Virus record (IMG/VR): IMGVR_UViG_3300014208_000030
Location: 104,076 to 168,075 of that record
DNA length: 64,000 nucleotides
From: a virus
Lineage: Duplodnaviria > Heunggongvirae > Uroviricota > Caudoviricetes
Reading direction: 5' to 3' (one strand)
In this document: positions 4,962 through 55,606 of the stretch, one piece after another
How the letters are laid out: each line of letters begins with the position of its first letter
Numbering within the stretch: the first letter of the stretch is position 1
Program-made: the position numbers and the translations under genes
The notes under the pieces: model-generated
Seen by the model: the letters and a program-made list of their open reading frames with translations, nothing else
Databases searched by the model: none
Told to the model about the DNA's origin: nothing

Positions 4962-5441
4962 ATGAAAATCATACATAATAAATTGTGCTCTTTCGTACAA
5001 GGCAAACCAAGCGAGTCACGCAAAATTAATGAGTGGTGCGCCAATATGAAAAAATTGAATAACGATTTTATGATAATGGTAGATGATAGCGATGATCAGG
5101 AAATAAGCTTGACAATCATAATCAGCCACACTACACAAAAAGAAAGAAGCGAATATGCAGCTAGAGCTAAAGCAATGTTAAAGGAACTCACAAATAAACA
5201 AGAAAAAGAAACCATCAAGCAGATAGAAGAAAGAATTAAAAGTATAAAGTCTATCGCAATACGTACACTAGCATTAACGTTATTAGAAGAAAATAATCTT
5301 GTCGGATTAACATACTATGTGTTAGGCGTATTCAATACCATGTCTAGCCGCAATATTGATGAGTTAACCCTTAATGCAATCATTAAGCTAATGAAAACAC
5401 TAGAGCCATCTAGTACCATATTAAAAAAGCTGAAAACTTGA
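4962..5441 (+). CDS. hypothetical protein (159 aa; start moved to ATG 4962)
   Basis: Internal ATG preceded by aaaaggaaccacaaaaa SD/leader matching other early genes; track start 4911 lacks RBS. Confidence 0.5.
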   Translation: MKIIHNKLCSFVQGKPSESRKINEWCANMKKLNNDFMIMVDDSDDQEISLTIIISHTTQKERSEYAARAKAMLKELTNKQEKETIKQIEERIKSIKSIAIRTLALTLLEENNLVGLTYYVLGVFNTMSSRNIDELTLNAIIKLMKTLEPSSTILKKLKT

Positions 5442-5632
5442 GAATCTAACAGGCAAAAAATGCCTTACATGCCACGTATATTCTCAAGGTATATGATGGC
5501 ATGGCTTTTCTGAATACGTGGCATAGTGAGCCTTATATGATGTTACCAAATAGCATAAAAATGGATGTTATAATATAACATTGCAAAAATTCTGCTATGG
5601 TGTAAAAGTAGGGTTTCTGGCCTTTTATGAAC

Positions 5633-5672
5633 ATATGCCCGTATATGCCCGTATATGCCCGTATATGCCCGT
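5633..5672. repeat. tandem 10-bp repeat ATATGCCCGT x4, followed by atgccc/gggcat hairpin
   Basis: four perfect head-to-tail copies read directly. Confidence 0.9.
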
Positions 5673-5833
5673 AAGGGCATGCTTGCGCCCACGCACATTC
5701 CCAAGGTTTTGTCAACATTTTCCCAAAAACCCGCCAACATTTTCCCAAAATCTACCAATTTTCCACCAAAATCCACTCCAAAGAACCCTCAAAACACATT
5801 TCTAACCATTTGTCAAGGAGTTTTCCCAAAAAC

Positions 5834-5912
5834 CCACTTTTCATAAGTCTTTGATTCTGTTCAACAAAAGTAACTTTTTACCTAATAGGTTTTTTGAAAT
5901 ATTAGCTTGACA
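5834..5912. repeat. ~78-bp direct repeat copy 1 (ccacttttcataagt...cctaataggttttttga)
   Basis: near-identical second copy at 6103-6180. Confidence 0.85.
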
Positions 5913-6102
5913 AAAGCGCGGGAATATGCCTCAAAAACTACCTGTTTGCCATATGTGACACATTATTTTTGCTAAAAGCTTGACAATTGTCTCAAAATCT
6001 GCCTAAGAACCAATTTTTGCATCGCGTGTGTAGTTCTTGAGCATGTTTTTGGTTGTTTGTCAAGCATATTAGCAAGAAATATGGCCTAGGTTACCAAAAA
6101 AG

Positions 6103-6180
6103 CCACTTTTCATAAGTGATTGATTATAAACGATAAAAGTTACTTTTTACCTAATAGGTTTTTTGATATTTTGCTTGTCT
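6103..6180. repeat. ~78-bp direct repeat copy 2
   Basis: matches 5834-5912 with a few substitutions. Confidence 0.85.
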
Positions 6181-6227
6181 TATTTGTAGTTTTGTGTTAT
6201 ACTATTCTGTTAACAAATTTCTAAAAT

Positions 6228-6608
6228 ATGGGAGTATCAATGGCTAAACAAGATTATACAAAATCAAGATGTTACATAGACGGGAGAAGCAACCACAAAA
6301 ATTATGCCATATACATATCAATGATAGCAAGGTGCTACAACAAAGACTGCAAACAATACAAGAACTATGGATGGCGTGGGATAAGGATATGTGACAGCTG
6401 GTTAAATGATTTTTGGGAGTTTGTCAAGGATATGGGAGAAAAGCCATACAAAATGACCTTAGATAGAATAGATAACGATGGCAATTACTGCCCAAGCAAT
6501 TGCAAATGGAGTACACAAAAGGAGCAAGCAAACAACACGAGAACGACTAGCAAAACGAGTGCAAGAAACAGATATAGGCGGCTATTCCCGCAAGTTAAGT
6601 TCAAATGA
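6228..6608 (+). CDS. small basic protein with HNH_3-type homing-endonuclease-associated motif (LDRIDNDGNYCPSNCKWST); catalytic His pair not evident
   Basis: Motif YKNYGWRGI..C..W....F...MG.......LDRIDNDGNY.P.NC.W.T..EQ is common in free-standing phage HNH-family genes; embedded in repeat-rich non-coding DNA. Confidence 0.5.
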   Translation: MGVSMAKQDYTKSRCYIDGRSNHKNYAIYISMIARCYNKDCKQYKNYGWRGIRICDSWLNDFWEFVKDMGEKPYKMTLDRIDNDGNYCPSNCKWSTQKEQANNTRTTSKTSARNRYRRLFPQVKFK

Positions 6609-6609
6609 A

Positions 6610-6870
6610 ATATTAGCTTGACAACCTACTGGCAATATGCTTGCCAGTGATTATTAAGAAAATGCTTGACAAATAGCTTGGGAAATGCTTGAGAATCTGT
6701 TTAGACTAGGCGGGATGCTTGGCAGGTGTTTAGCAAAAAGCTTGCCAAAATGATTTGTCAAGTAATATTTTGAAGCAGGTTGATGCATAGTTTTTATTGT
6801 TTGTCAAGTAGTTTTCGCTTGGGTTATTTGCGGGGAGTGGTTCGAAAAAGCTTGACAAAGTGAGAAAAAA
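6610..6870. repeat. cluster of ~12 GCTTGnnA (mostly GCTTGACA) motifs in both orientations
   Basis: gcttgaca/gcttgcca/gcttggga/gcttgaga/tgtcaagt copies counted by eye in a 260-bp non-coding stretch; more copies at 5906, 5980, 6055. Confidence 0.7.
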
Positions 6871-7037
6871 CAGTATAGGGAGCTTGGATGGAGCGCGTCA
6901 GCGCGAGCCCTAGCTCACGCCAGTCTATCTGTTTGAAAAATTTTTCCGACCAAATATTCTGGCACCAAAAACCATTCCTGTAAAGTCACTTCCAAAATTT
7001 TTTTCTCCAGGATATTCCATACCAAATTTTCAACCCT

Positions 7038-8849
7038 TCAGTATCCCACAGCCTCTTCAAAAGTGCAACCAAAATTATTCCATGACTGTATCTCCAATCG
7101 CATGGTATCCAGCCGCTCAAAATTTGCCATAATATATTCCATATCAGACTCAAAAAATGGTGTAATCTCACCAGTGGTTTCACAGACAGTATATGGCATG
7201 TGATTTCGCTTCTCCCAATTCTTTCCTTTCAATGTCGGGCGAAAATTTGTATAATGATTAAGTGCAAGCACTTGCTCTATAGTCGTCGCGCAAGATACCG
7301 GAAAATAATGATCATAATGCCAGTCTCCTTGATTGTGCCAACCAATACCATCAGTGAATTGACTCTCAATAAACTCATAAAATACTTCCATAGAGCAGCC
7401 CAATATGGCTTCCGTCTTTTCTGTTTTTGGGTGTCCCGTTCGTCTGATACCGGAACTTATTAGTGATCGAACTCGTGTGGTGAACATAGCAACCGGATCA
7501 GATCGTCGTCGCTGGCGCTCTCTAGCATACTTGCGTTTCCTTGCTTCTGGTGATAGGTTTTTATTATTTTCTCTGGCAGTTTCCTTAGCCTCCTGTCGCT
7601 TCTTATCGGCATGCTCGGCGAGTTCATCTGGAGTCATTCCGAGTAGTGGGTTTCTGCAAATTGGACATTTGCCTCCGGCAATATGTGATGCTGGCATCTG
7701 CTCGAACTCTCCATGTACTTTACATACGATAATGACTTTAGCTGTCGCTTTGATTACCACAGACTTCGAGTAGTCATATAACTCTCCATGTTGTGCTGTG
7801 GCTCGCTTGATGAACTCGCCTTGGCTCATCGTCCGTGATGCTAGGGCACACTTTGGGCAGTTTGATCCGGATGAGTGTGCGGAAGCGGTTTGGTTAAACT
7901 CACCGTGTATTTTGCATATGATGGTAATCTGCTGCCCAATAGCTACGTAATCTACTTTTGAGTAATCGTACCGATCGCCATGCGTCAGTTGCGATCGCCT
8001 AATAAACTCTTCACATGCTATTGTCTGTAGCGACATTGAGCAAGCCGCACAACCCTTACCTCGGATATGCGCATTTGCTCGTTGACTGAACTCACCATGA
8101 TCCGGACAAATTATTATTACGTTGGCCTGAGTGTGTTTGTAGTCTACTTTAGAATAATCATATCGGTCGCCGTGCACCTCCTTTGAGCGTGCAATGAAAT
8201 CTTCGTGTGAGAGTTTATTTGGCGGCTCGATCCCAGCGCCGATCCGGCTACCTTCCTTGGCGCACTCGCTACACCCAGCACCTTTGGTGTGGTTTGATGG
8301 TCTCTGCGAAAATACACCATGCGTTTTGCATATGATCTTCACCGGTGTATTGGCATCTACATACACAACATTAGAATAATCGTATCGATCGCCATGCTTT
8401 TTGGTCACTCTCTTAATGAATTCTTCGGTTGATATTGGCTGCACTCTCTTGCAATTTTCTCTTGCGCACTTGCTACACCCAGAACTCTTTATGTGCCCAT
8501 ACATAAGCTGCGAAAAGGCCCCATGCACTTTGCATATAATGGTTACTGGCGTTTTAGCGTCAACGTAATCAACTTGCGAGTAATCGAAGCGATCACCATG
8601 TACGGCAATGGCCTTCTGTACCATAGTTTCCGTCTTCTGCTTCGGTTGTTTCGGCGTGGGTGTCTTCTGTGGCACCTTCGGTACATATCTATAATACCCA
8701 GCAACCTTTTCGCTATTATTTGCGATCCATTCGGTACTATAGGCTTTGGCGCATGTTTTGCACTTATTAGAAATGCCACTTTTCATAGATGGCTGTTTAT
8801 AATACTCACCCAATGACTTCTCAATACCGCATGCTTTACATTTCTTCAT
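7038..8849 (-). CDS. HNH endonuclease with six tandem ~47-aa Cys/His repeat modules (start moved to MKKCKACG)
   Basis: C-terminal DWHYDHYFPVS...NHYTNFRPTLKGKNWEKRNH = HNH motif; six repeats of F..R...HGDRYDYS.V.Y......V.IICK.HG.F.Q....H..G.GC..C. Confidence 0.75.
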   Translation of the reverse strand: MKKCKACGIEKSLGEYYKQPSMKSGISNKCKTCAKAYSTEWIANNSEKVAGYYRYVPKVPQKTPTPKQPKQKTETMVQKAIAVHGDRFDYSQVDYVDAKTPVTIICKVHGAFSQLMYGHIKSSGCSKCARENCKRVQPISTEEFIKRVTKKHGDRYDYSNVVYVDANTPVKIICKTHGVFSQRPSNHTKGAGCSECAKEGSRIGAGIEPPNKLSHEDFIARSKEVHGDRYDYSKVDYKHTQANVIIICPDHGEFSQRANAHIRGKGCAACSMSLQTIACEEFIRRSQLTHGDRYDYSKVDYVAIGQQITIICKIHGEFNQTASAHSSGSNCPKCALASRTMSQGEFIKRATAQHGELYDYSKSVVIKATAKVIIVCKVHGEFEQMPASHIAGGKCPICRNPLLGMTPDELAEHADKKRQEAKETARENNKNLSPEARKRKYARERQRRRSDPVAMFTTRVRSLISSGIRRTGHPKTEKTEAILGCSMEVFYEFIESQFTDGIGWHNQGDWHYDHYFPVSCATTIEQVLALNHYTNFRPTLKGKNWEKRNHMPYTVCETTGEITPFFESDMEYIMANFERLDTMRLEIQSWNNFGCTFEEAVGY

Positions 8850-20704: not shown

Positions 20705-20992
20705 TTATGTGTGCATATATAATGAGTCGTAGTCGGCACTGAATACAACACCACAGCGCAGCAGATAGATAACATCATCTTCGGTAGCGACTTCGGCAAA
20801 GTCATCACAGCTGGTTGAGAGATAGATAACATCATGCTCTGCTGCAGTAACCATATCGCCTTTTTCTGGGACTATCTGGTCTAGCTTAATAAACGCACAT
20901 ATATCTGGGCGGTGATGCAGCTTGTCCTCAACTCTATCAAATTCCAGATACTCACTTTCGTGGGTCTCGAATAACGCATATACATCAATCAT
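20705..20992 (-). CDS. hypothetical acidic protein (95 aa)
   Basis: ORF, 4-nt overlap with ligase gene end. Confidence 0.45.
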   Translation of the reverse strand: MIDVYALFETHESEYLEFDRVEDKLHHRPDICAFIKLDQIVPEKGDMVTAAEHDVIYLSTSCDDFAEVATEDDVIYLLRCGVVFSADYDSLYMHT

Positions 20993-22845
20993 TTAATCAT
21001 CTCCAAATATTCATCTTCTGTTAGTACTACCACACCATGTTTTACTGCGGCATTTGTTTTTGCTGCACCTACGTTTGCGCCACAGACCAGATAGTCTGTT
21101 TTACTGCTAACTGAGCTGCCCACATTTGCGCCGAGTGCTTTTGCCTGTCTCGTCATCTCATCACGAGAGCCACGCACCATTGTGCCAGTAAAGCATATGG
21201 ATTTACCGGCTACTGACCCCGATACGACTGTTTCTGATGTGAGTGGCGTTTCCGATAGGTTGAATCCCAGTCTCATCAACCAATCAAACTCTGGCTTGAT
21301 CTTTGCGAGTGAGCTCACCAAATATTCCGCAGTTAACTCAGCGAAGCCATCGATCTTGATGATGTCTTCGACCGTCAATGCAAACACATCTGCGAGTTTG
21401 TGGTGACGTAAAAGCTTTTCGCAGCCACCCTTGCCAATGTTATTCAGAGAAAATGATGCCAAAAACCGCCAGTCTTCAATTTCTCGCAAAATGCTTTGTG
21501 ATAATTCATTAAACAGATTCTCTGACGTCTTCCCACCAAAACCTGCCTCGTCAAAATCATTTACATCCATAGCGTAAATTGATCGTACGGAGTTATATCC
21601 TGCTGAGTTTAGTTGTTCAATTACTTTTGGCCCAAACCCATCGATGTTGCCAAGTGTCTTAAAGAAGAACTCTATGGTGCGCTCTACCTGAGCTGGGCAG
21701 TCAATTGTATTGCTGCAAAAGAGATTATCACCATCTACTTCAGTAGGTGCTCCGCAGCTTGGGCATGCTTCTGGAGGATATACTGCTTCGGCTCCTTTGA
21801 CGACGCCAACAATATAGGGTATTACGAGGCCACTACGACACACTCTGACAATTGCGCCAGCGTCTATCATCTTACTCATAACGTTGCCAAAATTATGCCC
21901 AGTGGCCTTGGAAACTGTTGCACCAGAGATTTCTGTCGGCTCCAGATGCACAACTGGCGTCAGCCTACCAGTTTTTGCCGTTTGCCATATTAAGCCAAGT
22001 ACCGGTATATCAAAAAACTCCTCATTTTTCTTATAGGCAATTTGCCAGCGGTGGTGATGGTTAGTTGCGCCCATTTCTTCTTTAATTGCTGGGTGAACTG
22101 CCTCGATAACAAGACCATCTGTATCGAATTCACAATCGCGCACTACCTCATCCCACATGAGCTCAAGGTCGCGAAGAAGTTCAGTCTTCGTCTTGGTGAA
22201 ACTATGAATTTCTGAGAATGTGCAGAACACGACCGCACCATAGGCCACCGCATTCTTGATGCGCTCATCTAACTCGCCTTCTTTTATAACACCAGCAATG
22301 ATGTTTCTGGTATTTTTGTAGTATGGTGCCAACTCTTCTTCAAAATACTCTTTATTGACAACGATCTCACCGGCACCTTCTCTGCGGATAATTAAGCCGC
22401 GATGGAATGCTCTGGTAATGTCTGTGCCGCGCACACCATTGCCGCGAGTATACAGTGCCTTGCCATCATTATACGCAGCAAATCCGTCGAGCTTTGGCGT
22501 AACGCGAAAAACAACTTCGGACTCACCCATGCGCATCTGGCTGGCGACCGCTAATACATCAGTTGCCCATTTTTCTATTTCGGCAATAGAGTAGGCTTTG
22601 TCTGTAGACAACATCTTCTGTGGCAAGGTTACTGTCTTACCTTCTATTGCCTCTAAGTCAGATTCAACCTCAGACTCGGCGAAGAATTTGTTGTTGGGGA
22701 ATTGCTCTGCGTAAGTGGCTTTCATTGCATCGTATGCTGCATCAGTTACAATAGGATGCCCACCCCTATAGCGTGCATTGAGCTCTCTTGCATAAGCTTC
22801 GGCATCAGCCTCGCTAATATCCACTGCTGTGGTCATTTCAATCAT
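20989..22845 (-). CDS. ligA: NAD+-dependent DNA ligase (LigA family)
   Basis: Adenylation motif VTPKLDGFAAYNDG; C4 zinc finger CPSCGAPTEVDGDNLFCSNTIDCPAQ; C-terminal BRCT (SICFTGTMVRG...LVCGANVGAAK); 618 aa. Confidence 0.9.
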   Translation of the reverse strand: MIEMTTAVDISEADAEAYARELNARYRGGHPIVTDAAYDAMKATYAEQFPNNKFFAESEVESDLEAIEGKTVTLPQKMLSTDKAYSIAEIEKWATDVLAVASQMRMGESEVVFRVTPKLDGFAAYNDGKALYTRGNGVRGTDITRAFHRGLIIRREGAGEIVVNKEYFEEELAPYYKNTRNIIAGVIKEGELDERIKNAVAYGAVVFCTFSEIHSFTKTKTELLRDLELMWDEVVRDCEFDTDGLVIEAVHPAIKEEMGATNHHHRWQIAYKKNEEFFDIPVLGLIWQTAKTGRLTPVVHLEPTEISGATVSKATGHNFGNVMSKMIDAGAIVRVCRSGLVIPYIVGVVKGAEAVYPPEACPSCGAPTEVDGDNLFCSNTIDCPAQVERTIEFFFKTLGNIDGFGPKVIEQLNSAGYNSVRSIYAMDVNDFDEAGFGGKTSENLFNELSQSILREIEDWRFLASFSLNNIGKGGCEKLLRHHKLADVFALTVEDIIKIDGFAELTAEYLVSSLAKIKPEFDWLMRLGFNLSETPLTSETVVSGSVAGKSICFTGTMVRGSRDEMTRQAKALGANVGSSVSSKTDYLVCGANVGAAKTNAAVKHGVVVLTEDEYLEMIK

Positions 22846-23534: not shown

Positions 23535-24557
23535 TTATTTCTCTTTTAGCAAAAATTCGTTGTTAATAATCTTGAAGCTGAACTCACCATCGAGACGCTT
23601 AAGGACAATTCCTTCTCGCACGGGATGGCGCAATGATGCACCCTCAGCAAGTTTCAGGAGCTCATCGATATTATCCGTTGGAAGCACAAACTCATAATCT
23701 AACACCGGAACATGGTGCCCATTGTATCCAAGATCAAATAGGGCATCTAAGACCGCATGGCGCTCCATCGGTGCCAAATACTTTTGCGCATCAATATCCC
23801 AAATTTTGTAGGTGAATAGCGTATGATCTTCCAAATTTTCTCGGTTTGATTGCACACCAATTCCCATCAACTCACTCTGAACAGCAATATTCCTACCAAA
23901 TGCAGTTAGTGCTTGGATTAGGCCAGATGTATGCGCAGCAGTTACAAATGCATTACCTTCCTGCTCAACAACCAGCTCAATATTTCTGCTACAAACACCA
24001 TTAGCACCATCTTTGTGGTATACGGTGCATGAGCTACCATCAAGCTTCAGAGTCATTTCGAAAACATCACCATTGGCAAACGCTTGGGTAATTTCTTTCT
24101 TGATGTTCTGGATGCGCTCTTCGTCAGTCTTCCTGATGAAATACGGAAAATTCCCACGCTGCTTGCCAGCAAGCTGTGCATTAACTGGTGCTTCCCATTT
24201 CATGATGCCAAGCACATCGGTTAGATCATCGCCACCGGCAACTTCCCCAAAATCAAACTGGCTCAGTGGGAATAGCAAGCCCTGGGAAAGCTGTTTCTTA
24301 AGCTTGATGCTTCTCAGCTTCTCACCCTTAACACCAAGATATTCCCTTGGTTCTTTGCCTTTTGACAAGAACGGTGCCATCTCGGTGGGAATCCAGCTGT
24401 CAGGCTCCGCATACACTACTAACTCGCCGACCGCGTATTTCCCAACCGAGTCAATAACCCACCACCCATCTACTCGGTAGGCACATATTCTGTCTGCGCC
24501 ATCAATTGCCTTAATTTCTGCAATGGTTCTTACCGTAACTAATTTTCTATCACTCAT
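23535..24557 (-). CDS. ATP-dependent RNA ligase, Rnl5/DraRnl-like (N-terminal OB-like domain + nucleotidyltransferase)
   Basis: KxDG adenylation motif KLDGSSCTVYHKDG at ~aa 172 after a ~170-aa N-terminal domain, as in Deinococcus/Naegleria Rnl5; 340 aa. Confidence 0.6.
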   Translation of the reverse strand: MSDRKLVTVRTIAEIKAIDGADRICAYRVDGWWVIDSVGKYAVGELVVYAEPDSWIPTEMAPFLSKGKEPREYLGVKGEKLRSIKLKKQLSQGLLFPLSQFDFGEVAGGDDLTDVLGIMKWEAPVNAQLAGKQRGNFPYFIRKTDEERIQNIKKEITQAFANGDVFEMTLKLDGSSCTVYHKDGANGVCSRNIELVVEQEGNAFVTAAHTSGLIQALTAFGRNIAVQSELMGIGVQSNRENLEDHTLFTYKIWDIDAQKYLAPMERHAVLDALFDLGYNGHHVPVLDYEFVLPTDNIDELLKLAEGASLRHPVREGIVLKRLDGEFSFKIINNEFLLKEK

Positions 24558-47850: not shown

Positions 47851-49653
47851 ATGCAATCAACAGCAATAAACCAAAAAGACGGCTATAAAATTGGTCACAA
47901 ACCATTTTACCCAGACCTGACAGAAGAAATTTATGGCAATCTTACTGCACGGTCGGGTCGACTGTCAAATATCAAGGGCACCAAAGGCGTCTATTTTGTC
48001 GGTTTACAGGCTCTATTAGCCGAATATTTTGTCAAAGAATGGAATGAAACATTTTTCCAGCGACCAAAAGAAGAAGTACTCGAAAAATATCAACGTCGGG
48101 TATCGAATTTCTTTGGGTATGAGATCGATATTTCGCACATTGCCGCACTACATGATTTGGGTTTCTTGCCAATACAGGTGAAGGCGATCCCAGAAGGCTC
48201 TTTCGTTCCATATGGTGTCCCAATGGTCACCTACAAAAACACGGTCAAGAACTTTGGCTGGGTTGCGCAGATGTGTGAAACCGTATTGTCATCAGAAACA
48301 TGGCAGGGGATCACATCGGCAACGACCTATATGGAGTTCAAAAAACTCTTTACCAAATTTGCCCTGAAAACAGGCACCCATTTGGCGTTTGTCCCGTACC
48401 AAGGTCATGACTTCAGTTTCCGAGGAATGGCTGGCAGACACGCTGCAGCGAAGTCTGGTTATGCAATATTAGCCTGTGGTAGCTTCGGAACCGATTGTTT
48501 ACCGGCAATTGACTTGGCGGAAGACTATTATTATGCAGATGTTACAAAAGAGATTGTCGGGCTGTCAATTACGGGAACTGAACACTCGGTAGCATCGGCA
48601 AACATCATCACTATTGAGGAGGCTTTCCGCAAAACTGGTGAGTGGGGTGGGCTTAGGTTTGAAGACCTTATTGATGATAGTTCGGATACAGATTATAAAA
48701 ACATCGCCGAAACAGCATTTATCCATCGTGTCATATCACAGGTTGCCCCAAGCGGCAAGGTAGCGTTAGTGTGTGACACATATAATTTTTGGAACGTAGT
48801 GACAAACAGCTTGCCAATACTCAAGGGAGAAATTATGGCAAGAGATGGTCAGGTGGTTATTCGCCCGGATTCTGGCGACCCAGTTCGCATGATCTGCGGT
48901 GGCGATTACGAAGTTATACGCCATGCTGATAATATAGAACAAGCAAAGCGGTATGCCTTAGATTCATTGGAAGAGTATGTTCGTGAAGATGCCGGTCATG
49001 GCGAATGTGGAATGATAGATTACGGTGACATCTTCAACTGGAATGGAAAATACTACCGAGCTGAGGCCGAATTTGAGTGGAACCGGTACGGCAAACAGTA
49101 CTACTTCATTGACGGCAGCAAGTTGCTATCATTTGAAGAAGTTGAGCTAAGTGCTGACCAGAAAGGTCTGATCGAATGTTTGTGGGAAACTTTTGGCGGC
49201 ACATTGACCGAAACAGGCCACAGAATGCTCGATTCACATATAGGTGCTATCTACGGTGATTCAATCACATATGAACGCGCCACTGAGATTCTGACGCGAC
49301 TAGAGGCCAAAAACTTTGCCAGTGGTAACATAGTTCTAGGCTTGGGCTCCTATTTGTTTCAGCTAGTGACGCGGGACACGCACGGTATGGCAATTAAAGG
49401 CACCCACATTGTAGTGGATGGCAAAGACGTACCGATTTTCAAAGACCCAATCACTGATGACGGTACTAAAAAGTCCGCAAAAGGATATATGGTCGTGGAG
49501 ACCGATGAGAATGGCGAATATTGCATGCGCGACATGGTATCCAGAAAAGAAGAGAAATATGGTGCATTACGAGTTGTATTCCGTGATGGCATACTGTATA
49601 ATGAAACAACCTTAGCAGAAACAAGAAAATTAACCGAGTTGAAACTATCATGA
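47851..49653 (+). CDS. nicotinamide phosphoribosyltransferase (Nampt/NadV)-like protein; candidate Namat
   Basis: N-terminal DGYKIGHKPFYP resembles the Nampt DSYK.tHy block; length 600 aa; immediately follows the Prs-like gene with 2-nt spacing. Confidence 0.65.
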   Translation: MQSTAINQKDGYKIGHKPFYPDLTEEIYGNLTARSGRLSNIKGTKGVYFVGLQALLAEYFVKEWNETFFQRPKEEVLEKYQRRVSNFFGYEIDISHIAALHDLGFLPIQVKAIPEGSFVPYGVPMVTYKNTVKNFGWVAQMCETVLSSETWQGITSATTYMEFKKLFTKFALKTGTHLAFVPYQGHDFSFRGMAGRHAAAKSGYAILACGSFGTDCLPAIDLAEDYYYADVTKEIVGLSITGTEHSVASANIITIEEAFRKTGEWGGLRFEDLIDDSSDTDYKNIAETAFIHRVISQVAPSGKVALVCDTYNFWNVVTNSLPILKGEIMARDGQVVIRPDSGDPVRMICGGDYEVIRHADNIEQAKRYALDSLEEYVREDAGHGECGMIDYGDIFNWNGKYYRAEAEFEWNRYGKQYYFIDGSKLLSFEEVELSADQKGLIECLWETFGGTLTETGHRMLDSHIGAIYGDSITYERATEILTRLEAKNFASGNIVLGLGSYLFQLVTRDTHGMAIKGTHIVVDGKDVPIFKDPITDDGTKKSAKGYMVVETDENGEYCMRDMVSRKEEKYGALRVVFRDGILYNETTLAETRKLTELKLS

Positions 49654-50312: not shown

Positions 50313-50340
50313 TTGACACATTTTAAAAATGCTGTATACT
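50313..50340 (+). promoter_or_regulatory. sigma70 promoter aaagcTTGACA-16-TATACT
   Basis: consensus hexamers; upstream of tRNA cluster. Confidence 0.6.
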
Positions 50341-50470
50341 GTATCACAAGTTAAGCAGTAAGGCGGTAAAGAAGTAAATCAGTATAGTTGTTCCTTTGTG
50401 GTGGTTTCTAGGATGCTGGGAAAGGTTTTGTGGTTATTACCTACTCAGTGATCCTAGCTTTTTTGGTGGG

Positions 50471-50515
50471 GTACCGTTGGTTGTGGTGATTATTGGTACC
50501 CCACTCTTTTTTAAA
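50471..50515 (+). terminator. hairpin (8-bp stem ggggtacc/ggtacccc, 19-nt loop) followed by ctctttttt
   Basis: seen in sequence; loop large so terminator call is tentative. Confidence 0.4.
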
Positions 50516-50606
50516 TTTGTCTAAATGGTTATAACGGGGTACTCATTATATGCCGATTTTGGTTCGATTCCAAATACGACAAATTTAAAAAAGATTAAAG
50601 AATAAT

Positions 50607-50680
50607 GCGGGTATAGCAAAACGGTTATGCAACTGGCTTCCACCCAGTTCACGGGAGTTCGACCCTCCCTACCCGCTCCA
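50607..50680 (+). tRNA. tRNA-Gly (anticodon TCC)
   Basis: hand-folded cloverleaf: acceptor gcgggta/tacccgc, anticodon stem actgg/ccagt loop cTTCCAc, T-arm gggag-ttcgacc-ctccc, 3' CCA encoded. Confidence 0.8.
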
Positions 50681-50702
50681 AATAACATAGGGAAGCATAA
50701 TA

Positions 50703-50936
50703 ATGGCAGTAGAAGTGAGAGTATTTGAACCTGATCCGGCACACATCTGCATTAGGAATGCTGGGAAGTGGTCACTGAGTATGAATCCAAATATGTTTGG
50801 TCGCGTAACTCATATTAGATATTTGAATGAGTTTGAGTGTGACCTCATCAATGGAGCAATAAAAGCCGCGCAGCGTGCAATGGATATAGCATCTGGAGTA
50901 CCTTCTGAAGCTGATCCTAACCGGATAGATAATTAA
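50703..50936 (+). CDS. hypothetical small protein between tRNA genes (77 aa)
   Basis: ORF only. Confidence 0.3.
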   Translation: MAVEVRVFEPDPAHICIRNAGKWSLSMNPNMFGRVTHIRYLNEFECDLINGAIKAAQRAMDIASGVPSEADPNRIDN

Positions 50937-50945
50937 AAAGTTTTT

Positions 50946-51021
50946 GCGCCAGTAGCTCAATGGTAGAGCGTTCCCCTCATAAGGGATTGGTTTTTGGTTC
51001 GAATCCAAACTCGGCGCACCA
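50946..51021 (+). tRNA. tRNA-Met/Ile2-like (anticodon CAT), acceptor stem with one bulged C
   Basis: D-arm gctc-aatggta-gagc, anticodon loop cuCAUaa, T-arm tttgg-ttcgaat-ccaaa, CCA encoded; acceptor gcgccag pairs with ct(c)ggcgc only if one C is bulged. Confidence 0.55.
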
Positions 51022-51027
51022 AATAAT

Positions 51028-51101
51028 AAGTCATTAGCTCAACGATAGAGCGGCTAGGTGCACTAGTAGATGGTGGGTTTAACTCCCATCATGGCTTGCC
51101 A
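51028..51101 (+). tRNA. tRNA-like element (anticodon arm unresolved)
   Basis: acceptor aagtcat/atggctt + g + CCA, D-arm gctc-aacgata-gagc, T-arm-like gtggg-tttaact-cccat; central region ctaggtgcactag is palindromic and gives no canonical 7-nt loop. Confidence 0.35.
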
Positions 51102-51426
51102 AATTAAGACTAAGTAGAAGCCTTTCCCTACGCACTAAGGAGAGGCAACAAATAATACGATTAGCTTGTCAGACTTAGAACTGTATATTCAACTCTCGAA
51201 CATGGTTGCTTCTAGTCGTATTTTTTGTTAGTGAATGCGTAGGCTGATACGCTGAGATTTGTCTCTCGTCGCAATCCATTTAATTGTGGCTCTAGCAACA
51301 GACATTAACTGAAATGATAAGCATGGGATCAGTACATGCCACCAACTTCAAATACCGTAAGAGGATAGTATTGTGTCTAAATTTAAAATAAGAGGACGGT
51401 GCAATTTTCATTAGTATATTTAACTA

Positions 51427-51960
51427 ATGGAGGTAGCAATGTTAATCGTAACACAAAGAAGCTTCACAACAAAGCACGATCAGGTTATTGGGTATTTTCA
51501 GGACATTCGTGCCATCTACGACCACTTTAGTGGTTTGTTTGGCAAATATGGTTTAGAGAACAGATTCTCCCATAACCAATTTGAGGTCGTAGTAACCGGT
51601 AGATACTGGTTATCTTGGCGAGAAGATATTACCGGCACCGAGCATGCAATGGTTATTACTAACCGGCAGGGTATCCGGTATAGCAAAGAGTTTGTTGCTG
51701 GGATATTTGCAAAGTACCGTAAAACGAAGTTCCAGTGGGGCTGGATACGTGGTACGAAAAGAAATTACCGGTGCTGCTATCGTAGTATAAGAACAACCCA
51801 AGAAATAAGACTTTCAGTGGGTGTTCTGAAAGAAGAAGGTGAACCAGTTTGGCGAACATCTAGAAATTATCATAACTTACCCAACAAATGGGATGAGATA
51901 CAGCATTTGGATGTTTGCAACCGGAACTGGAAGCGGTTTAGAAAAACACAATATAAATAG
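51427..51960 (+). CDS. hypothetical protein (177 aa)
   Basis: ORF; SD ggagg. Confidence 0.45.
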   Translation: MEVAMLIVTQRSFTTKHDQVIGYFQDIRAIYDHFSGLFGKYGLENRFSHNQFEVVVTGRYWLSWREDITGTEHAMVITNRQGIRYSKEFVAGIFAKYRKTKFQWGWIRGTKRNYRCCYRSIRTTQEIRLSVGVLKEEGEPVWRTSRNYHNLPNKWDEIQHLDVCNRNWKRFRKTQYK

Positions 51961-51979
51961 TATATAATGAGGCAGTGAA

Positions 51980-52168
51980 ATGAAAACCCTTTTCGTATGG
52001 ATGAAGTATTCTTGGCAAATCGTGGGACAATCCCTCGCAACTAAGAAGCATCGCAGACCAATAGTAAATGAGGCAGGATTCGTGGCACCGATTATCGTAC
52101 CACTTGGGTATATTGGTGTTATTTTGCAGATAGTTGTTGCGGCATATGTATTAAAAGTTATTTTTTGA
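51980..52168 (+). CDS. hypothetical small membrane protein (62 aa)
   Basis: hydrophobic C-terminus. Confidence 0.35.
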   Translation: MKTLFVWMKYSWQIVGQSLATKKHRRPIVNEAGFVAPIIVPLGYIGVILQIVVAAYVLKVIF

Positions 52169-52177
52169 AAATAAAGC

Positions 52178-52205
52178 TTGACAAGATGTAAAAAGTGTGT
52201 ATAAT
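52178..52205 (+). promoter_or_regulatory. sigma70 promoter aaagcTTGACA-16-TATAAT
   Basis: perfect hexamers upstream of tRNA-Ser. Confidence 0.65.
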
Positions 52206-52283
52206 GGTTGAATAGTTTGCATCACATATAAAGACGGCAATCTTTGTGGTGCGAGCCTTAGTTAAAAAATGATTTGATACGTG

Positions 52284-52291
52284 TATAAATA
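52284..52291 (+). promoter_or_regulatory. late promoter TATAAATA upstream of tRNA-Ser
   Basis: gtgTATAAATAaaag 12 nt before tRNA 5' end. Confidence 0.5.
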
Positions 52292-52302
52292 AAAGTAGAT
52301 AT

Positions 52303-52392
52303 GGAAATGTGGCAGAGCGGTTTATTGCACTGGTCTTGAAAACCAGCGGGGCTTAATCGCCTCCCAGAGTTCGAATCTCTGCGTTTCCGCCA
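52303..52392 (+). tRNA. tRNA-Ser (anticodon TGA), long variable arm
   Basis: acceptor ggaaatg/cgtttcc, anticodon stem ctggt/accag loop cuUGAaa, variable arm, T-arm cagag-ttcgaat-ctctg, CCA; similar in layout to E. coli tRNA-Ser. Confidence 0.8.
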
Positions 52393-52450
52393 TACAATGG
52401 CACGGTTTGTCAGTTTCTAGGTCTAAAAATGAGAAACTTCCACGAATAAT

Positions 52451-52525
52451 TGCGGTGTACATCAGAGGTAGATGAACTGGCTCATAACCAGAAAGACGGG
52501 AGTTCGAGTCTCTCCACCGCTACCA
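52451..52525 (+). tRNA. tRNA (anticodon CAT; Met or Ile-lysidine), U1-U72 mismatch
   Basis: acceptor tgcggtg/caccgct, D-arm catc-agaggta-gatg, anticodon loop cuCAUaa, T-arm gggag-ttcgagt-ctctc, CCA encoded. Confidence 0.6.
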
Positions 52526-52544
52526 GTTTTAAAGTAGTAAATTT

Positions 52545-52621
52545 CGGAATGTATTTCAGTCTGGTAGAATGAACCGTTTGGGGCGGTTCGGTCGTGGGTT
52601 CAAATCCCTCCATTCCGACCA
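52545..52621 (+). tRNA. tRNA-Pro (anticodon TGG)
   Basis: acceptor cggaatg/cattccg perfect, anticodon stem aaccg/cggtt loop uuUGGgg (G37), T-arm gtggg-ttcaaat-ccctc, CCA. Confidence 0.75.
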
Positions 52622-52639
52622 AACAAGGGATATCACGCT

Positions 52640-52735
52640 TAGTTACGTGCCATTTGGCATCGCGCACCCAGATATCCCACCAAATAAGTGTTATCACGCC
52701 TATTGCCAAATGGCTCGCGCACCATGATAGCACGA
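52640..52735. repeat. two ~35-bp direct repeats each containing palindrome tgccatttggca / tgccaaatggc + cgcgcac
   Basis: gatatcacgcttagttacgtgccatttggcatcgcgcaccc vs gttatcacgcctattgccaaatggctcgcgcacc. Confidence 0.6.
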
Positions 52736-53042
52736 TTAACACCAGCCATTACTCTTGGGCGTTATAATTAAGAGAGGTCTTAAGCTCATACCAGAATGAG
52801 AATTGGTACATATCGCATACCAGACAAACATCCGTGTAGAGGAGAGGTTACAAAATCGATATCGTGCCTGTATGTGTACGTAAACATCCCACTGGCTAGC
52901 AAATAGGGCTCTTGGGTGAAGCATACTAGACGGAGAATAAACAGCCTAGATGGGGGAGCGTTGGTGACGTTTAGCCCATCACTCTTATTTTAAAATAAGA
53001 GATAAATATAGCAAAATGAGTGAAGTATTTTCTCCAGCTAAG

Positions 53043-53114
53043 GCACAAGGTGTGCCGCCATCCTGTTAAGATGTGTGAGTTTGGTCCGATTCCAAAAGCT
53101 GGAGAAAATACTTT
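53043..53114 (+). tRNA. tRNA-Asn-like (anticodon GTT) embedded in a 16-bp extended inverted repeat; no CCA
   Basis: acceptor tccagct/agctgga, D-arm ggca-caaggtg-tgcc, anticodon loop cuGUUaa, T-arm tttgg-tccgatt-ccaaa; flanks gaagtattttctccagc / gctggagaaaatactt extend pairing. Confidence 0.5.
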
Positions 53115-53126
53115 ATATACAAAGAG

Positions 53127-54002
53127 TTACGGGTTAATATAATTCTCAACGAGTTTCACTAATTCTGAGTACTCGATACTAGATATTGTTTTCTTTTTAT
53201 TATTTTCTGTGTGCTGCATCAATTCACAATTTAGTGGGTGTGTGATATAAAATGCATCATAGTTATATTTTAGTGCATCATGCACGGATACTCTATGGTC
53301 TCTCGATATCCCATCTGGGTTCCACTTTTGGCCTTTGAAATTATTCGGCGAGAACCACCCGAATTTATCTATTAAGGTCAGATCGAACAGGTCTGGATAG
53401 TGGTACACATTGAATGTAAACTTATATCGTTGCTTTTCTGCTGGTGAATATATGGTAACGCACTTTGTACAGTATTTCGTCGCCCTCCTTTGGGATATGA
53501 TAATGCCACAGTGCTGACATTTGCACATATATAACTTAGAAAATACACCAGATGCGGTTTTGTTAGTTTCTCGGTTTCGTACTGGACTGCGGCGTTGCGC
53601 TACTCGCTTACGTACAGGCTTTGGTAATTTAGCTTTGCGTTCTGGCTTGCTCTTGATTTTGTGTGCAGATTTATGATAGGCCGATACGCTTTTAGATACT
53701 TTATCCTTGTGGGCATCAGTAATAACATAGCCATGTTTTATTCTGTCGGTATTATTAAATGTAGCTGCACATGATGCATTACAAAATTTTCGATTAGAAT
53801 CTAATGGCATATTACAATGAATGCAGTATTTAATATTAGATTGAAATCTAGGAAGCCGATCGACCGATATCTCTTTCTTAGTAATAATACAGCAGCATCT
53901 TAGTTGTGGAAGTTTACCAGCTGATATGCCGTGAATACGAGAATGCCCATTAAGAGAGCGAATTGATGGAAATATTTTACTACAGTGTTCGCATTTGAAC
54001 AT
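53127..54002 (-). CDS. HNH endonuclease with N-terminal C2H2 zinc finger (homing-endonuclease-like) in the tRNA region
   Basis: FKCEHCSKIFPSIRSLNGHSRIH = C2H2; C-terminal GISRDHRVSVHDA...HPLNCELMQHTENNKK = HNH; basic KxK-rich linker. Confidence 0.7.
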   Translation of the reverse strand: MFKCEHCSKIFPSIRSLNGHSRIHGISAGKLPQLRCCCIITKKEISVDRLPRFQSNIKYCIHCNMPLDSNRKFCNASCAATFNNTDRIKHGYVITDAHKDKVSKSVSAYHKSAHKIKSKPERKAKLPKPVRKRVAQRRSPVRNRETNKTASGVFSKLYMCKCQHCGIIISQRRATKYCTKCVTIYSPAEKQRYKFTFNVYHYPDLFDLTLIDKFGWFSPNNFKGQKWNPDGISRDHRVSVHDALKYNYDAFYITHPLNCELMQHTENNKKKTISSIEYSELVKLVENYINP

Positions 54003-54108
54003 TGGATACCCGATATAAATAATATTGTGTAGGACAGTTCAGTTACCCGATACTGAATTGATTAATATTGGTCGTATTAATCTAACTGCATATATTTATA
54101 TAAATATG

Positions 54109-54137
54109 TTGACAATATATCGAATATGGTATATACT
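54109..54137 (+). promoter_or_regulatory. sigma70 promoter TTGACA-17-TATACT (overlapping TATAAATA boxes on both strands at 54095-54106)
   Basis: seen in sequence. Confidence 0.55.
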
Positions 54138-54203
54138 CTTAAAAGTTAACAATATACCGGACAAGCATGCGAAAGCTGCTCAAATCGTTCCGGTTTTTAT
54201 TAT

Positions 54204-54284
54204 TGTCATGTAGCTCAGTGGTAGAGCAGTGGCGTAGTCGCACTACGCTTCCGTACGGTGGGTCAACACCACCCATGACAGCCC
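54204..54284 (+). tRNA. tRNA-like element (perfect acceptor stem tgtcatg/catgaca, canonical D-arm), anticodon arm atypical
   Basis: D-arm gctc-agtggta-gagc; T-arm ggtgg-gtcaaca-ccacc; 29 nt between D- and T-arms form gcgtag-tcgca-ctacgc hairpin; anticodon not assignable by hand. Confidence 0.4.
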
Positions 54285-54300
54285 AATTTAGCGAAATAAC

Positions 54301-54373
54301 AATTGCATGTCGGACGCAAGAACCGTATATTCAATTTTCAAATATGATTGCATCAGTTGTTATTTCGGTAAAT
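54301..54373 (+). ncRNA. candidate stable RNA: 11-bp inverted repeat cgaaataacaa/ttgttatttcg enclosing ~50 nt
   Basis: between two tRNA genes, as for T4 small stable RNAs in its tRNA cluster. Confidence 0.25.
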
Positions 54374-54431
54374 CGCCACGCAAGTGGTCTTACAGATAGT
54401 GGATATCCAAGATGAACCCACTTAAAACAAT

Positions 54432-54506
54432 TCTTGGAATTGCTGGTGAAGCATAAGTGGCGATGCACATGACTTGTAATCATGAGAACGCGGGTCGGAA
54501 CCGCGC
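54432..54506 (+). tRNA. tRNA-Thr (anticodon TGT)
   Basis: acceptor gctggtg/caccagc, D-arm gcat-aagtggcg-atgc, anticodon stem catga/tcatg loop cuUGUaa, T-arm cgcgg-gtcggaa-ccgcg, CCA. Confidence 0.8.
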
Positions 54507-54580
54507 ACCAGCTCCAACCTTTAAATGTGTCTTAAATCATGTTTTAAATCAAACTTAAATCAAAACGGAATCAAAATTAT
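54507..54580 (+). promoter_or_regulatory. AU-rich repetitive leader of gene 32 (UUAAAUC(A) x4): candidate gp32 translational autoregulation site
   Basis: ctttaaatg / cttaaatca / tttaaatca / cttaaatca repeats between tRNA-Thr and ATG 54581. Confidence 0.45.
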
Positions 54581-55606
54581 ATGACAGGATCAGCATCATC
54601 TTTTCAAGCATTAAGAAATCGCGCATTAACATCTCCATTGTCTGGCGCAAAGACTCTCAGTGACCAATCCGGCGAATCTACTACCAAAAATTACGACGAC
54701 GAACGGTATTGGAAACTAGCTCGCAGTGCGGATGGCAACGGTGCCGCAGTAATTCGTTTTCTTGATGTTGGCGAAAAAGACTCTGGTGACAAAAACAATC
54801 TTCCATTTGTTAAAATCTATGATCACGCTTTCGCTGTTCTTGGCGGCAAAGTAGTACCGGCAAAAACAGCTGGCGCAAAATGGTACATCGAGAAATCATT
54901 GTCAACATTTGGCTTTGCAGAACAGGATATCGTAGGCATCAAGAATTCTGAGTTGTGGAACAGTGGCCTTGAATCGGACAAAGAGATTGCCCGTTCACGC
55001 AAACGTCGACTGAGATTCACATCAAACATTTTGGTCATCAACGATCCAGCAAATCCAGAAAACAACGGCAAATGCTTCCTGTTCGAGTACGGCAAACAAA
55101 TTGCCGACATGATCGACGAAGTGAAATGCCCAGCAGAAGACCCACTGGCTCTTGAGCCTGTTGTTGGATATGATCCATTCTGTTTCTGGAAAGGTGCAAA
55201 CTTTACGCTTAAAATCCGTAACAAAGAAGGCACCGGCAAGGACGTCTACCCATCATACGACAAGTCTGCATTCCAAGCACCCACCCCATTATTCGGCGGT
55301 GATGATGCAAAGATTGAGGCATTATGGAGCGAGTTATATTCTCTACAAGAATTACTCGACCGGAAGCATTTCAAGACTCAAGAGGAATTGAAAAAGCGCT
55401 TCGAGTACGTATATGGAATTACATCTGCTGCTCCGGCAGAAGCACCGGCTCCGACACAGGAAGCTGCTGACGAAGATGTACCGATGTTTGCCGACAAGAC
55501 TGCACCAAAGCCAAAGAAAGAAGAAGCTGCAGCACCGTTTAGTCTCGATGACGATGACGATGACCTGAAGTTTTTCGCTGACTTAGCTGGCGGTTCTGAC
55601 GAGTAA
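54581..55606 (+). CDS. 32: single-stranded DNA-binding protein gp32
   Basis: Recalled alignment to T4 gp32: WKLARSADGNGAAVIRFL vs WKLKLDNAGNGQAVIRFL; ILVINDPANPENNGKCFLFEYGKQI vs [25 protein letters not shown]; acidic C-terminal tail DDDDDDL. Confidence 0.9.
   Translation: MTGSASSFQALRNRALTSPLSGAKTLSDQSGESTTKNYDDERYWKLARSADGNGAAVIRFLDVGEKDSGDKNNLPFVKIYDHAFAVLGGKVVPAKTAGAKWYIEKSLSTFGFAEQDIVGIKNSELWNSGLESDKEIARSRKRRLRFTSNILVINDPANPENNGKCFLFEYGKQIADMIDEVKCPAEDPLALEPVVGYDPFCFWKGANFTLKIRNKEGTGKDVYPSYDKSAFQAPTPLFGGDDAKIEALWSELYSLQELLDRKHFKTQEELKKRFEYVYGITSAAPAEAPAPTQEAADEDVPMFADKTAPKPKKEEAAAPFSLDDDDDDLKFFADLAGGSDE

Follow-up and report, generated by a model that had tools for sequence, protein, structure and literature searches.

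Which RNAs make up the transfer RNA (tRNA) cluster of an uncultured tailed phage when two of its members carry an anticodon region that cannot be assigned, and what might those members be for? The question is raised by a stretch of 64,000 nucleotides (nt) from a virus of the Caudoviricetes (positions 104,076 to 168,075 of IMG/VR record IMGVR_UViG_3300014208_000030; hereafter the window, meaning the whole stretch), in which nine tRNA or tRNA-like genes lie on the + strand between 50607 and 54516 (union of ARAGORN default calls and the Rfam tRNA family, RF00005). We read the locus, with a probability of about 0.7, as the tRNA and small-stable-RNA region of a T4-like phage, built like that of T4, in which two irregular elements, A and B, are tRNA scaffolds. 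Both retain the frame of a canonical tRNA (a 7-base-pair (bp) acceptor stem, a 4-bp D stem with a D arm of the AGCUCA..UAGAGC type, a 5-bp T stem and a CCA-like 3' end), and both are set apart from RF00005 members by a non-canonical anticodon arm. Downstream of each lies a copy of a small structured RNA, S.

At its default threshold ARAGORN calls seven genes (Gly tcc 50607-50680, CAT 50946-51021, Ser tga 52303-52392, CAT 52451-52525, Pro tgg 52545-52621, Asn gtt 53032-53105 and 'Ala cgc' 54203-54285, the last being element B), and six pass the Rfam tRNA gathering score: Gly, both CAT, Ser, Pro and Thr tgt (54442-54513), which the default ARAGORN run misses. The Rfam match to element A (51029-51097) has 26.4 bits (E=0.022) against a gathering score of 29. 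Since the default setting gave no call in thirty simulated 64-kb sequences, the Asn and 'Ala cgc' calls are not chance; a threshold relaxed to 80% gave ~26 false calls per 64 kb, and relaxed calls alone were rejected as evidence. A preliminary description of this DNA had listed a cluster of about nine tRNA genes with non-canonical members, two of them combining good acceptor and D arms with an unassignable anticodon region. The two programs together confirm the cluster and these two elements, A and B; they call more than the five canonical genes named there, and B is conserved. In an automatic annotation A and B would pass as tRNA-Ala and a T4-type isoleucine tRNA of the cluster as tRNA-Met, and the decoding capacity of the phage would thereby be misstated.

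Relatives for comparison were found through gp32, the protein of gene 32. A large protein collection gave the source contig, one sister phage (L008, gp32 69% identical to that of the window) and two short contigs (L105 and L106, 64-65% identical); two IMG/VR contigs (L001 and L002) have gp32 ~48% identical and likewise carry tRNAs ahead of gene 32. For elements A and B, L008 is the single informative relative.

Elements A and B and other irregular members

Element B (54203-54285, + strand) forms a cloverleaf in which the 7-bp acceptor stem is perfect, the D arm is standard and the T stem has 5 bp; its 3' end reads GCC(C)A. Its middle arm is GCGUAG-UCGCA-CUACGC, with three extra nucleotides 5' of the arm and an 8-nt variable region; this arm folds as a stem of 6-8 bp with a loop of 3-5 nt, the preferred form having 7-8 bp and a 3-nt loop. 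The loop has G32...C38, and position 37 is a C, hence a pyrimidine, in L008. Against the Rfam tRNA model the window copy is not reported at E<=10, and the L008 orthologue scores 36.5 bits.

Conservation between the two phages is concentrated in the odd arm. The 31-nt block that spans it, GGCGTAGTCGC.CTACGCTTCCGTACGGTGG, is the same in L008 save for one loop base, alignable non-coding DNA near B being 76-82% identical. Elsewhere in the element acceptor pair 2:71 has gone from G-C in the window to C-G in L008, the D and T stems have changed to G.U pairs only, and the T loop in L008 is the canonical UUCGAAU. With its arm conserved and its other stems changed compatibly, B has the marks of a selected RNA whose odd arm matters. 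Judged from these sequences, B is a non-decoding RNA that is clearly under selection: it is not an alanine tRNA, because it lacks G3.U70 (pair 3:70 is U3-A70 in both the window and L008, and G3-C70 in A), and it is not a plausible decoder, because of C37 in L008.

Element A (51028-51101, + strand; cloverleaf fold z = -2.4) has perfect stems throughout, including a 7-bp acceptor stem with A1-U72 followed by G73-CCA, and a D arm. Its anticodon arm, GCUAG-GUGCA-CUAGU, prefers a 5-nt loop, the alternative being one of 7 nt with G33; UUUAACU forms the T loop (no C56) and AACGAUA the D loop, with loss of the GG/C56 elbow contacts. In L008 the exact site of A, with the same flanks, is occupied by a tRNA-Trp(CCA), whose A1-U72, G73 and CCA are kept in A and from which A differs by three compensatory stem pairs (two in the acceptor stem and one in the D stem). 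By its position and these shared features A is derived from a tRNA, and it has probably been neo-functionalised; simple decay is argued against by the anticodon arm, which is a new perfect hairpin. The arm core UAG-NNGCA-CUA is common to A and B, whose 5' halves are alike too; this likeness has weak statistics and may reflect common descent or convergence. A motif common to both, TAGNNGCACTA, occurs at two more sites in the window, each within an open reading frame (ORF), and these were judged to be chance.

Further members of the cluster depart from the canonical form in other ways. Element Z (50515-50584, + strand), just before tRNA-Gly and outside the cluster as previously delimited, is tRNA-like without a D arm, having an acceptor-like stem ATTTGTC/GACAAAT and a T arm TTTGG-TTCGATT-CCAAA. 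Its T stem is GAAGG/CCTTC in L008, which amounts to three compensatory pairs, and the acceptor-like stem covaries too. Downstream of tRNA-Pro stand two tandem copies of a mini-helix of ~46-56 nt (52627-52682 and 52688-52733, + strand), each composed of an outer stem, a GCCAwwTGGC hairpin and the block TCGCGCACC, the first copy ending in ACCA like the 3' end of a tRNA; L008 has a single copy with one compensatory change from C-G to T-A.

The Asn(GUU)-like tRNA (53025-53113, with the tRNA proper at 53032-53105, + strand; fold z = -4.1) was confirmed to lie in a 16-bp extended inverted repeat without an encoded CCA. A 6-bp hairpin stands in place of its D arm, the T loop reads UCCGAUU, the acceptor stem runs on into the inverted repeat, and Rfam reports no match for it at E<=10. 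In L008 the Asn gene departs from the norm differently, with a long extra arm and acceptor mismatches. This aberrant Asn-GUU may work as a tRNA. Another irregular tRNA of this phage group is a Pro(UGG)-like gene in L002 (9300-9375), which has a 6-nt anticodon loop (TTTGGG).

The S RNA family and the recurrent hairpin of B

The two window copies of S are S1 (51144-51228, + strand), which begins 43 nt after A, and S2 (54285-54370, + strand), within a few nucleotides of the 3' end of B. S2 corresponds to a candidate stable RNA proposed previously at 54301-54373, which is borne out here and extended to a covarying family of eight sequences. A covariance model built from seven of them (R1) gave 95.9 bits for S2, and its search found S1 (75.2 bits, E=4e-16). 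The core, of ~45 nt, reads UGUC[G/A]GAC, 2-3 variable nt, AGAAC[C/U]GUAUAUUCA.UU.UC[A/G]A..AUG..UGC.

In the eight-sequence alignment 90% of cells are paired under the three-helix fold, compared to 27-43% when the partners are slid, and two-sided changes are seen in 14 of the 21 pairs; in 500 shuffles no observed measure was equalled. A pair in helix 3 occurs as A-U, C-G and G-C, and one in helix 2 as G-C and A-U. The + strand is indicated by several G.U pairs. A coding role for S (a 30-amino-acid (aa) ORF at 54307-54399) was rejected, a 1-nt indel between homologues breaking the frame where the nucleotides are conserved.

Homologues of S lie upstream of tRNA-Thr and gene 32 in L105 and L106, and ~7 nt downstream of tRNA-Thr in L002, which was the only contig added by degenerate scans for the core. 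S is absent from L001, and in L008 the outer stem alone remains, closed by a tetraloop, with the core gone. The core also occurs in three unrelated IMG/VR contexts (L153, L146 and L167), each time with other flanking arms. No Rfam 15 covariance model gave a match overlapping 51144-51228 or 54285-54370 even at E<=10; blastn of B, A plus S1, and S2 against 50,697 phage records returned nothing outside the generic tRNA 5' half; S had no match in Escherichia coli genomes, searched with mimicry of a host small RNA in mind; and neither the S core nor the B hairpin string was found in the literature. S is a well-supported RNA family with two copies in the window, undescribed in any resource searched: backed by covariation, absent from Rfam and present in several unrelated phage lineages.

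The 17-nt hairpin of B (54232-54248) recurs as the exact string GCGTAGTCGCTCTACGC in 18 IMG/VR contigs and in Lachnospiraceae-type prophages (together loci L014-L032, L047, L050, L053, L066, L071, L075 and L086). Its contexts are non-coding and of at least four unrelated kinds; it may, for example, open a conserved leader or follow a tRNA by 5-7 nt. The corresponding scan with the arm of A gave only chance matches in coding regions and calibrates the background at ~10 random matches per 15-mer, from which ~2-3 would be expected for the 17-nt hairpin. A GTDB scan for the B arm gave 67 matches, mostly chance ones in GC-rich genomes, the exceptions being Lachnospiraceae-type prophages, and a JGI metagenome scan with a B-specific version of the arm gave chance matches only. 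The hairpin leaders of the other phages matched no Rfam family, and no B-type tRNA-like gene was found beyond the window and L008 in the IMG/VR, GTDB and JGI scans. The shared loop base and the non-coding positions suggest that GCGTAGTCGCTCTACGC is a real motif, the alternative being coincidence with B.

Layout, predicted processing and alternative explanations

T4-type gp2, gp53, baseplate and UvsW genes, together with gp32, surround the cluster, and its organisation invites comparison with T4 itself, whose tRNA region has been known since the 1970s to yield two stable RNAs of no known function. Besides these, rnaC (species 1) and rnaD (species 2), the region comprises the homing endonuclease segB and eight tRNA genes in two subclusters, in the order Gln, Leu, Gly, Pro, Ser, Thr, Ile, segB, Arg, rnaD, rnaC; rnaC has a T arm and acceptor-like ends. 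The roles of rnaC and rnaD are still unknown (PMC3014915; PMC9697503). As in T4, the tRNAs of the window share one strand and are separated by short spacers, an ORF of endonuclease type interrupts the cluster midway, and small structured RNAs directly follow a tRNA, the rnaC of T4 being itself tRNA-like; Gly-UCC, Ser-UGA, Pro-UGG, Thr-UGU and the tRNA-Ile(CAU) anticodon arm are common to both. Unlike T4, the window cluster adjoins gene 32 rather than genes e and ipI, has two CAU tRNAs and Asn but no Gln, Leu or Arg, and carries its inserted ORF on the opposite strand, this ORF not being a GIY-YIG protein. A, B, S, E (a further structured RNA described below), Z and the mini-helices have no sequence similarity to rnaC or rnaD, and a search of the T4 tRNA region with R1 gave no match. 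The region is thus a T4-type tRNA and stable-RNA region with a known layout, in which some RNAs are new. An RNA of ~125 nt in L001 (9447-9595) and L002 (9474-9598), with tRNA-like ends (TGGCTTC ... GATAGGTTCGATTCCTATC-AAAGCCA-CCA) around a large internal insert, also recalls T4 rnaC; the L002 copy has a weak beta-tmRNA match (17.7 bits).

Retention of the acceptor/T-arm module with replacement of the anticodon arm, as in A and B, is also the design of tmRNA, the bacterial Y-RNA-like YrlA and engineered tRNA scaffolds. The likeness is one of design and not of membership, the window elements having neither a tag reading frame nor a Ro-binding helix, and the Rfam YrlA matches are very weak (19.4 and 17.4 bits, the gathering score being 69).

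On the scaffold reading, early promoters that precede runs of structured RNA on the + strand, and late TATAAATA motifs close before tRNA-Ser and B, would give long precursors, from which host enzymes (RNase P, 3' trimming, CCA repair) would release several products. A, B, Z and perhaps the mini-helices would still have the acceptor/T-arm module recognised by processing and CCA enzymes, their decoding arm having been swapped for another hairpin. A and B would most likely be natural tRNA scaffolds, that is, stable, defined, CCA-ended RNAs that display a selected hairpin and might act in trans. They could also supply the processing site that frees the S RNA downstream, by analogy with T4 tRNA-Arg ahead of rnaD and rnaC. 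Such T4-like tRNA regions can hold a whole set of non-decoding RNAs; if expressed, those of the window would offer a tractable route to the role of the stable RNAs of phage tRNA regions, and would show whether phages use tRNA scaffolds to stabilise or deliver small functional RNAs.

Several observations weigh against this account. B is kept in L008 though the S core is absent there, and B is therefore not merely a handle for S; conversely, S in L153, L146 and L167 has no upstream tRNA. The compensatory changes between A and the L008 tRNA-Trp cannot be assigned to a lineage, and the stems of A might have been maintained only on the Trp-bearing side. Much early transcription could be stopped by the hairpin/U-run leaders that separate two of the early promoters (50313 and 54109) from the first RNA gene. 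The transcripts of the cluster and their processing are predicted from sequence.

That A, B, Asn, Z and the mini-helices are instead functionless tRNA pseudogenes, decaying in a fast-changing cluster, is possible but rather doubtful. It would fit the very different tRNA content of the sister phages (L008 has Trp, Leu, two Tyr and Arg, all missing in the window), the restriction of A to the window lineage and the absence of elbow contacts between its D and T loops, the Asn genes that are irregular each in its own way, and the 6-nt anticodon loop of the L002 Pro-like gene. Decay should leave mismatched stems, however, and those of A, B and Z are perfect or compensated; the arm of B is the same in L008 save for one loop base against ~76-82% identity for nearby non-coding DNA, and that of A is a new perfect hairpin and not a damaged Trp arm. 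Selection on the B arm would also suit the function put forward in the preliminary description, in which the irregular tRNAs are decoys for host anticodon or other tRNA nucleases, or substrates for RNA-ligase repair. Phage tRNAs that counter tRNA-cleaving defences are an established theme, with T4 Pnkp and Rnl1 repairing PrrC-cut tRNA-Lys and anticodon-loop variant tRNAs in other phages, and the window shares with those systems altered anticodon loops and an RNA-ligase-family gene (23535-24557, - strand; PF09414 and a PHA02142 OB domain), in line with the RNA ligase named previously. A decoy should, however, copy a real anticodon stem-loop, and the arms of A and B, with their 5-nt loops, G33 in A and C37 in the L008 copy of B, do not, which makes this function unlikely on anatomy. 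A and B resemble none of the known nuclease targets (tRNAs for Lys, Tyr, Arg and fMet), and the cluster holds no Lys, Tyr or Arg mimic; the anti-tRNase tRNAs described for phages are decoders with 7-nt loops, whereas A and B are unlikely decoders and mimic no target tRNA. A literature search for a tRNA-like decoy found no case, and no polynucleotide kinase-phosphatase partner was seen among the 16 window ORFs scanned against Pfam, most ORFs lying outside that scan. The decoy or repair-substrate function is thus not supported, and we hold it improbable. Least credible is that A and B are working alanine decoders with nuclease-resistant loops, A (UGC) reading GCA and B (CGC) reading GCG. ARAGORN does read both as Ala, both loops end in GCAC as does UUUGCAC, the loop of E. 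coli tRNA-Ala(UGC), and GCA is the commonest Ala codon (39%), in keeping with the A-ending pattern of the other phage tRNAs. Neither element, however, has the identity-defining G3.U70; A has G33 and prefers a 5-nt loop, B has three extra nucleotides before its arm, an 8-nt variable region and C37 in L008, and GCG makes up just 14% of Ala codons.

For S, the corresponding question is whether it acts as DNA and not as RNA, as a MotA-type middle promoter or a protein-binding or recombination site. The middle-promoter consensus is GCTTGT, ~14 bp and TATATT, and the S core has GCTTG and TATATT at roughly that spacing; S varies in presence among close relatives (in L002, not in L001, and as a hairpin without the core in L008), and short direct repeats (ATTGCAT or ATTGCTT) flank the core in four of the eight copies. 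Conservation is not a property of promoter spacers, whereas ~45 nt of S are nearly invariant; the three helices covary, with several G.U pairs that would be A.C mismatches on the other strand; and the copies in T4-like phages are all on the strand of the tRNAs. We accordingly give a DNA role little chance. With the RNA and scaffold reading retained, a more ambitious version, which we advance with considerable reserve, would make S a new class of autonomous functional RNA, a three-way junction with ~45 near-invariant junction and loop nucleotides that is gained and lost in hairpin loops of phage intergenic regions. A-S1 and B-S2 would then be two-part modules with A and B as natural tRNA scaffolds, B displaying a hairpin, GCGUAG-UCGCN-CUACGC, that unrelated phages place at leader 5' ends or after tRNAs. 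That S might be a self-cleaving ribozyme, or a defence-related or counter-defence RNA, is a possibility.

Canonical tRNAs, promoters and neighbouring features

Six genes of the cluster are canonical, all on the + strand: Gly-UCC, Ser-UGA, Pro-UGG, Thr-UGU and two CAU tRNAs. tRNA-Gly(UCC) (50607-50680; 59.9 bits in Rfam), the class II tRNA-Ser(UGA) (52303-52392) and tRNA-Thr(UGU) (54442-54516; 46.2 bits, called by ARAGORN at the relaxed threshold only) encode their CCA; tRNA-Pro(UGG) (52545-52621), found like tRNA-Gly and tRNA-Ser by both ARAGORN and Rfam, is identical in L008. The first CAU tRNA, CAU-1 (50946-51021; 58.2 bits), has an anticodon arm, TCCCCTCATAAGGGA, identical to that of T4 tRNA-Ile, and C4 (C4-G69) and C5 (C5-G68) in its acceptor stem. 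By these features it is a T4-type, AUA-reading isoleucine tRNA of the putative lysidine type, which pipelines label Met. The bulged C described earlier in its acceptor stem is present, in the 3' strand between pairs 5:68 and 6:67. A bulged T stands at this site in L001 and L002, T4 has a U6xU67 mismatch there, and L008 and a homologue from a Klebsiella phage have no bulge; the position is thus one that tolerates irregularity within a functional family. CAU-2 (52451-52525; 57.5 bits) has a U1xU72 mismatch, that is, no Watson-Crick 1:72 pair, in both the window and L008, and carries two of the initiator's three anticodon-stem G-C pairs in the window (UGG/CCA) and all three in L008 (GGG/CCC); it appears initiator-like, with one of the two initiator marks fully present in the window copy. 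In 30 ORFs of the phage the commonest Ser, Pro and Thr codons are UCA, CCA and ACA, and AUA makes up 28% of Ile codons, figures that describe phage usage alone. The cluster tRNAs serve the favoured A-ending codons of the phage, as is usual for T4-type tRNA sets. L008 has two identical tRNA-Tyr(GUA) genes (7280-7365 and 7591-7676) and, in its tRNA region, a 701-aa ORF (5035-7140), none of which is in the window.

The consensus sigma70 promoters and late motifs described previously were borne out by sequence match. Early promoter 1 (50313-50340, TTGACA-16-TATACT; 11 of 12 consensus positions) is conserved in L008, early promoter 2 (52178-52205, TTGACA-16-TATAAT) matches at 12 of 12 positions and early promoter 3 (54109-54137, TTGACA-17-TATACT) at 11 of 12, all on the + strand. 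The late motif TATAAATA lies 12 nt before tRNA-Ser (52284-52291, + strand), and a divergent block at 54093-54137 combines two further copies, on the - strand (54093-54100) and the + strand (54099-54106), with early promoter 3 and is ~93% conserved in L008. Other + strand copies are at 51952 and 54014, and the whole window has 20 against 5.4 expected, a roughly fourfold enrichment. The - strand copy of the divergent block faces the inserted ORF.

This ORF (53127-54002, - strand; 291 aa) is zinc-finger-rich and intact in L008. Its earlier designation as an HNH gene could not be verified: Pfam gave no HNH match even for the C-terminal 97 aa at E<=10, and the DH...N...H pattern is seen by eye only. 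What it does have is weak matches to C2H2 zinc fingers in Pfam and membership of PHROG 23051, of unknown function; no solved structure proved related beyond zinc fingers. It may be a homing endonuclease. The ORF, Asn and B are jointly absent from L105, in which S directly follows element E, and the boundaries of this block share the repeat AGCC(C/T)A, so that a deletion or insertion of the block is possible.

Element E (52906-52978, + strand) is a conserved structured RNA whose hairpin, AGCGT-TGGTG-ACGTT, ends ...TTAGCCCA. The stem is AGCGT/ACGTT in the window, ATTAT/ATAAT in L008 (8352-8465) and ATCGT/ACGAT in L105 (30-125), around an invariant TGGTG loop. IMG/VR scans for the mini-helix and element E gave chance matches or none, with no match for E. 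Two tandem leader hairpins, each followed by a T-run, are read at 50408-50465 and 50467-50512 (+ strand); conservation in L008 is ~90%, and the second hairpin shows one compensatory pair. A third leader hairpin, predicted by folding and followed by a U-run, lies between early promoter 3 and B (54156-54202, + strand), at a site where L008 has a different hairpin and U-run; it has a weak match to abiF RNA (22.5 bits against a gathering score of 37).

The gene 32 homologue (54581-55606; PF08804) begins just downstream of the tRNA region; its product shares ~45% identity with the gp32 of cultured phages, and IMG/VR proteins reach 50% at the most. A comparison with 50,697 deposited phage records gave no near DNA match to the window beyond single tRNAs. 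An identical gp32 is encoded on two contigs of ~168 kb (source samples ENA ERZ27249449 and JGI 3300037810), one from ENA (L011), which is 100% identical to the window across 12 kb, and one from JGI (L010), from the same sample as L008. The sole difference between L010 and the window is an insertion of 22 nt of (TA)n in L010, at 54102-54103 within the divergent late-promoter block, which is either a length polymorphism or an assembly difference. Farther out, a gene of the nicotinamide phosphoribosyltransferase family (47851-49653; PF04095, 600 aa) is almost wholly missing in L008 (1121-1537), where only its two ends align, and a NAD-dependent DNA ligase gene (20989-22845, - strand) lies close to the RNA-ligase-family gene. 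Directly upstream of the gene 32 leader stands not a pseudoknot but tRNA-Thr (window) or S RNA (L002). The leader itself (54519-54580, + strand) reads TTAAAT four times, and those of L001 (9860-9930) and L002 (9950-9985) carry TTAATACAC three or four times, repeats that resemble the translational operator of T4 gp32.

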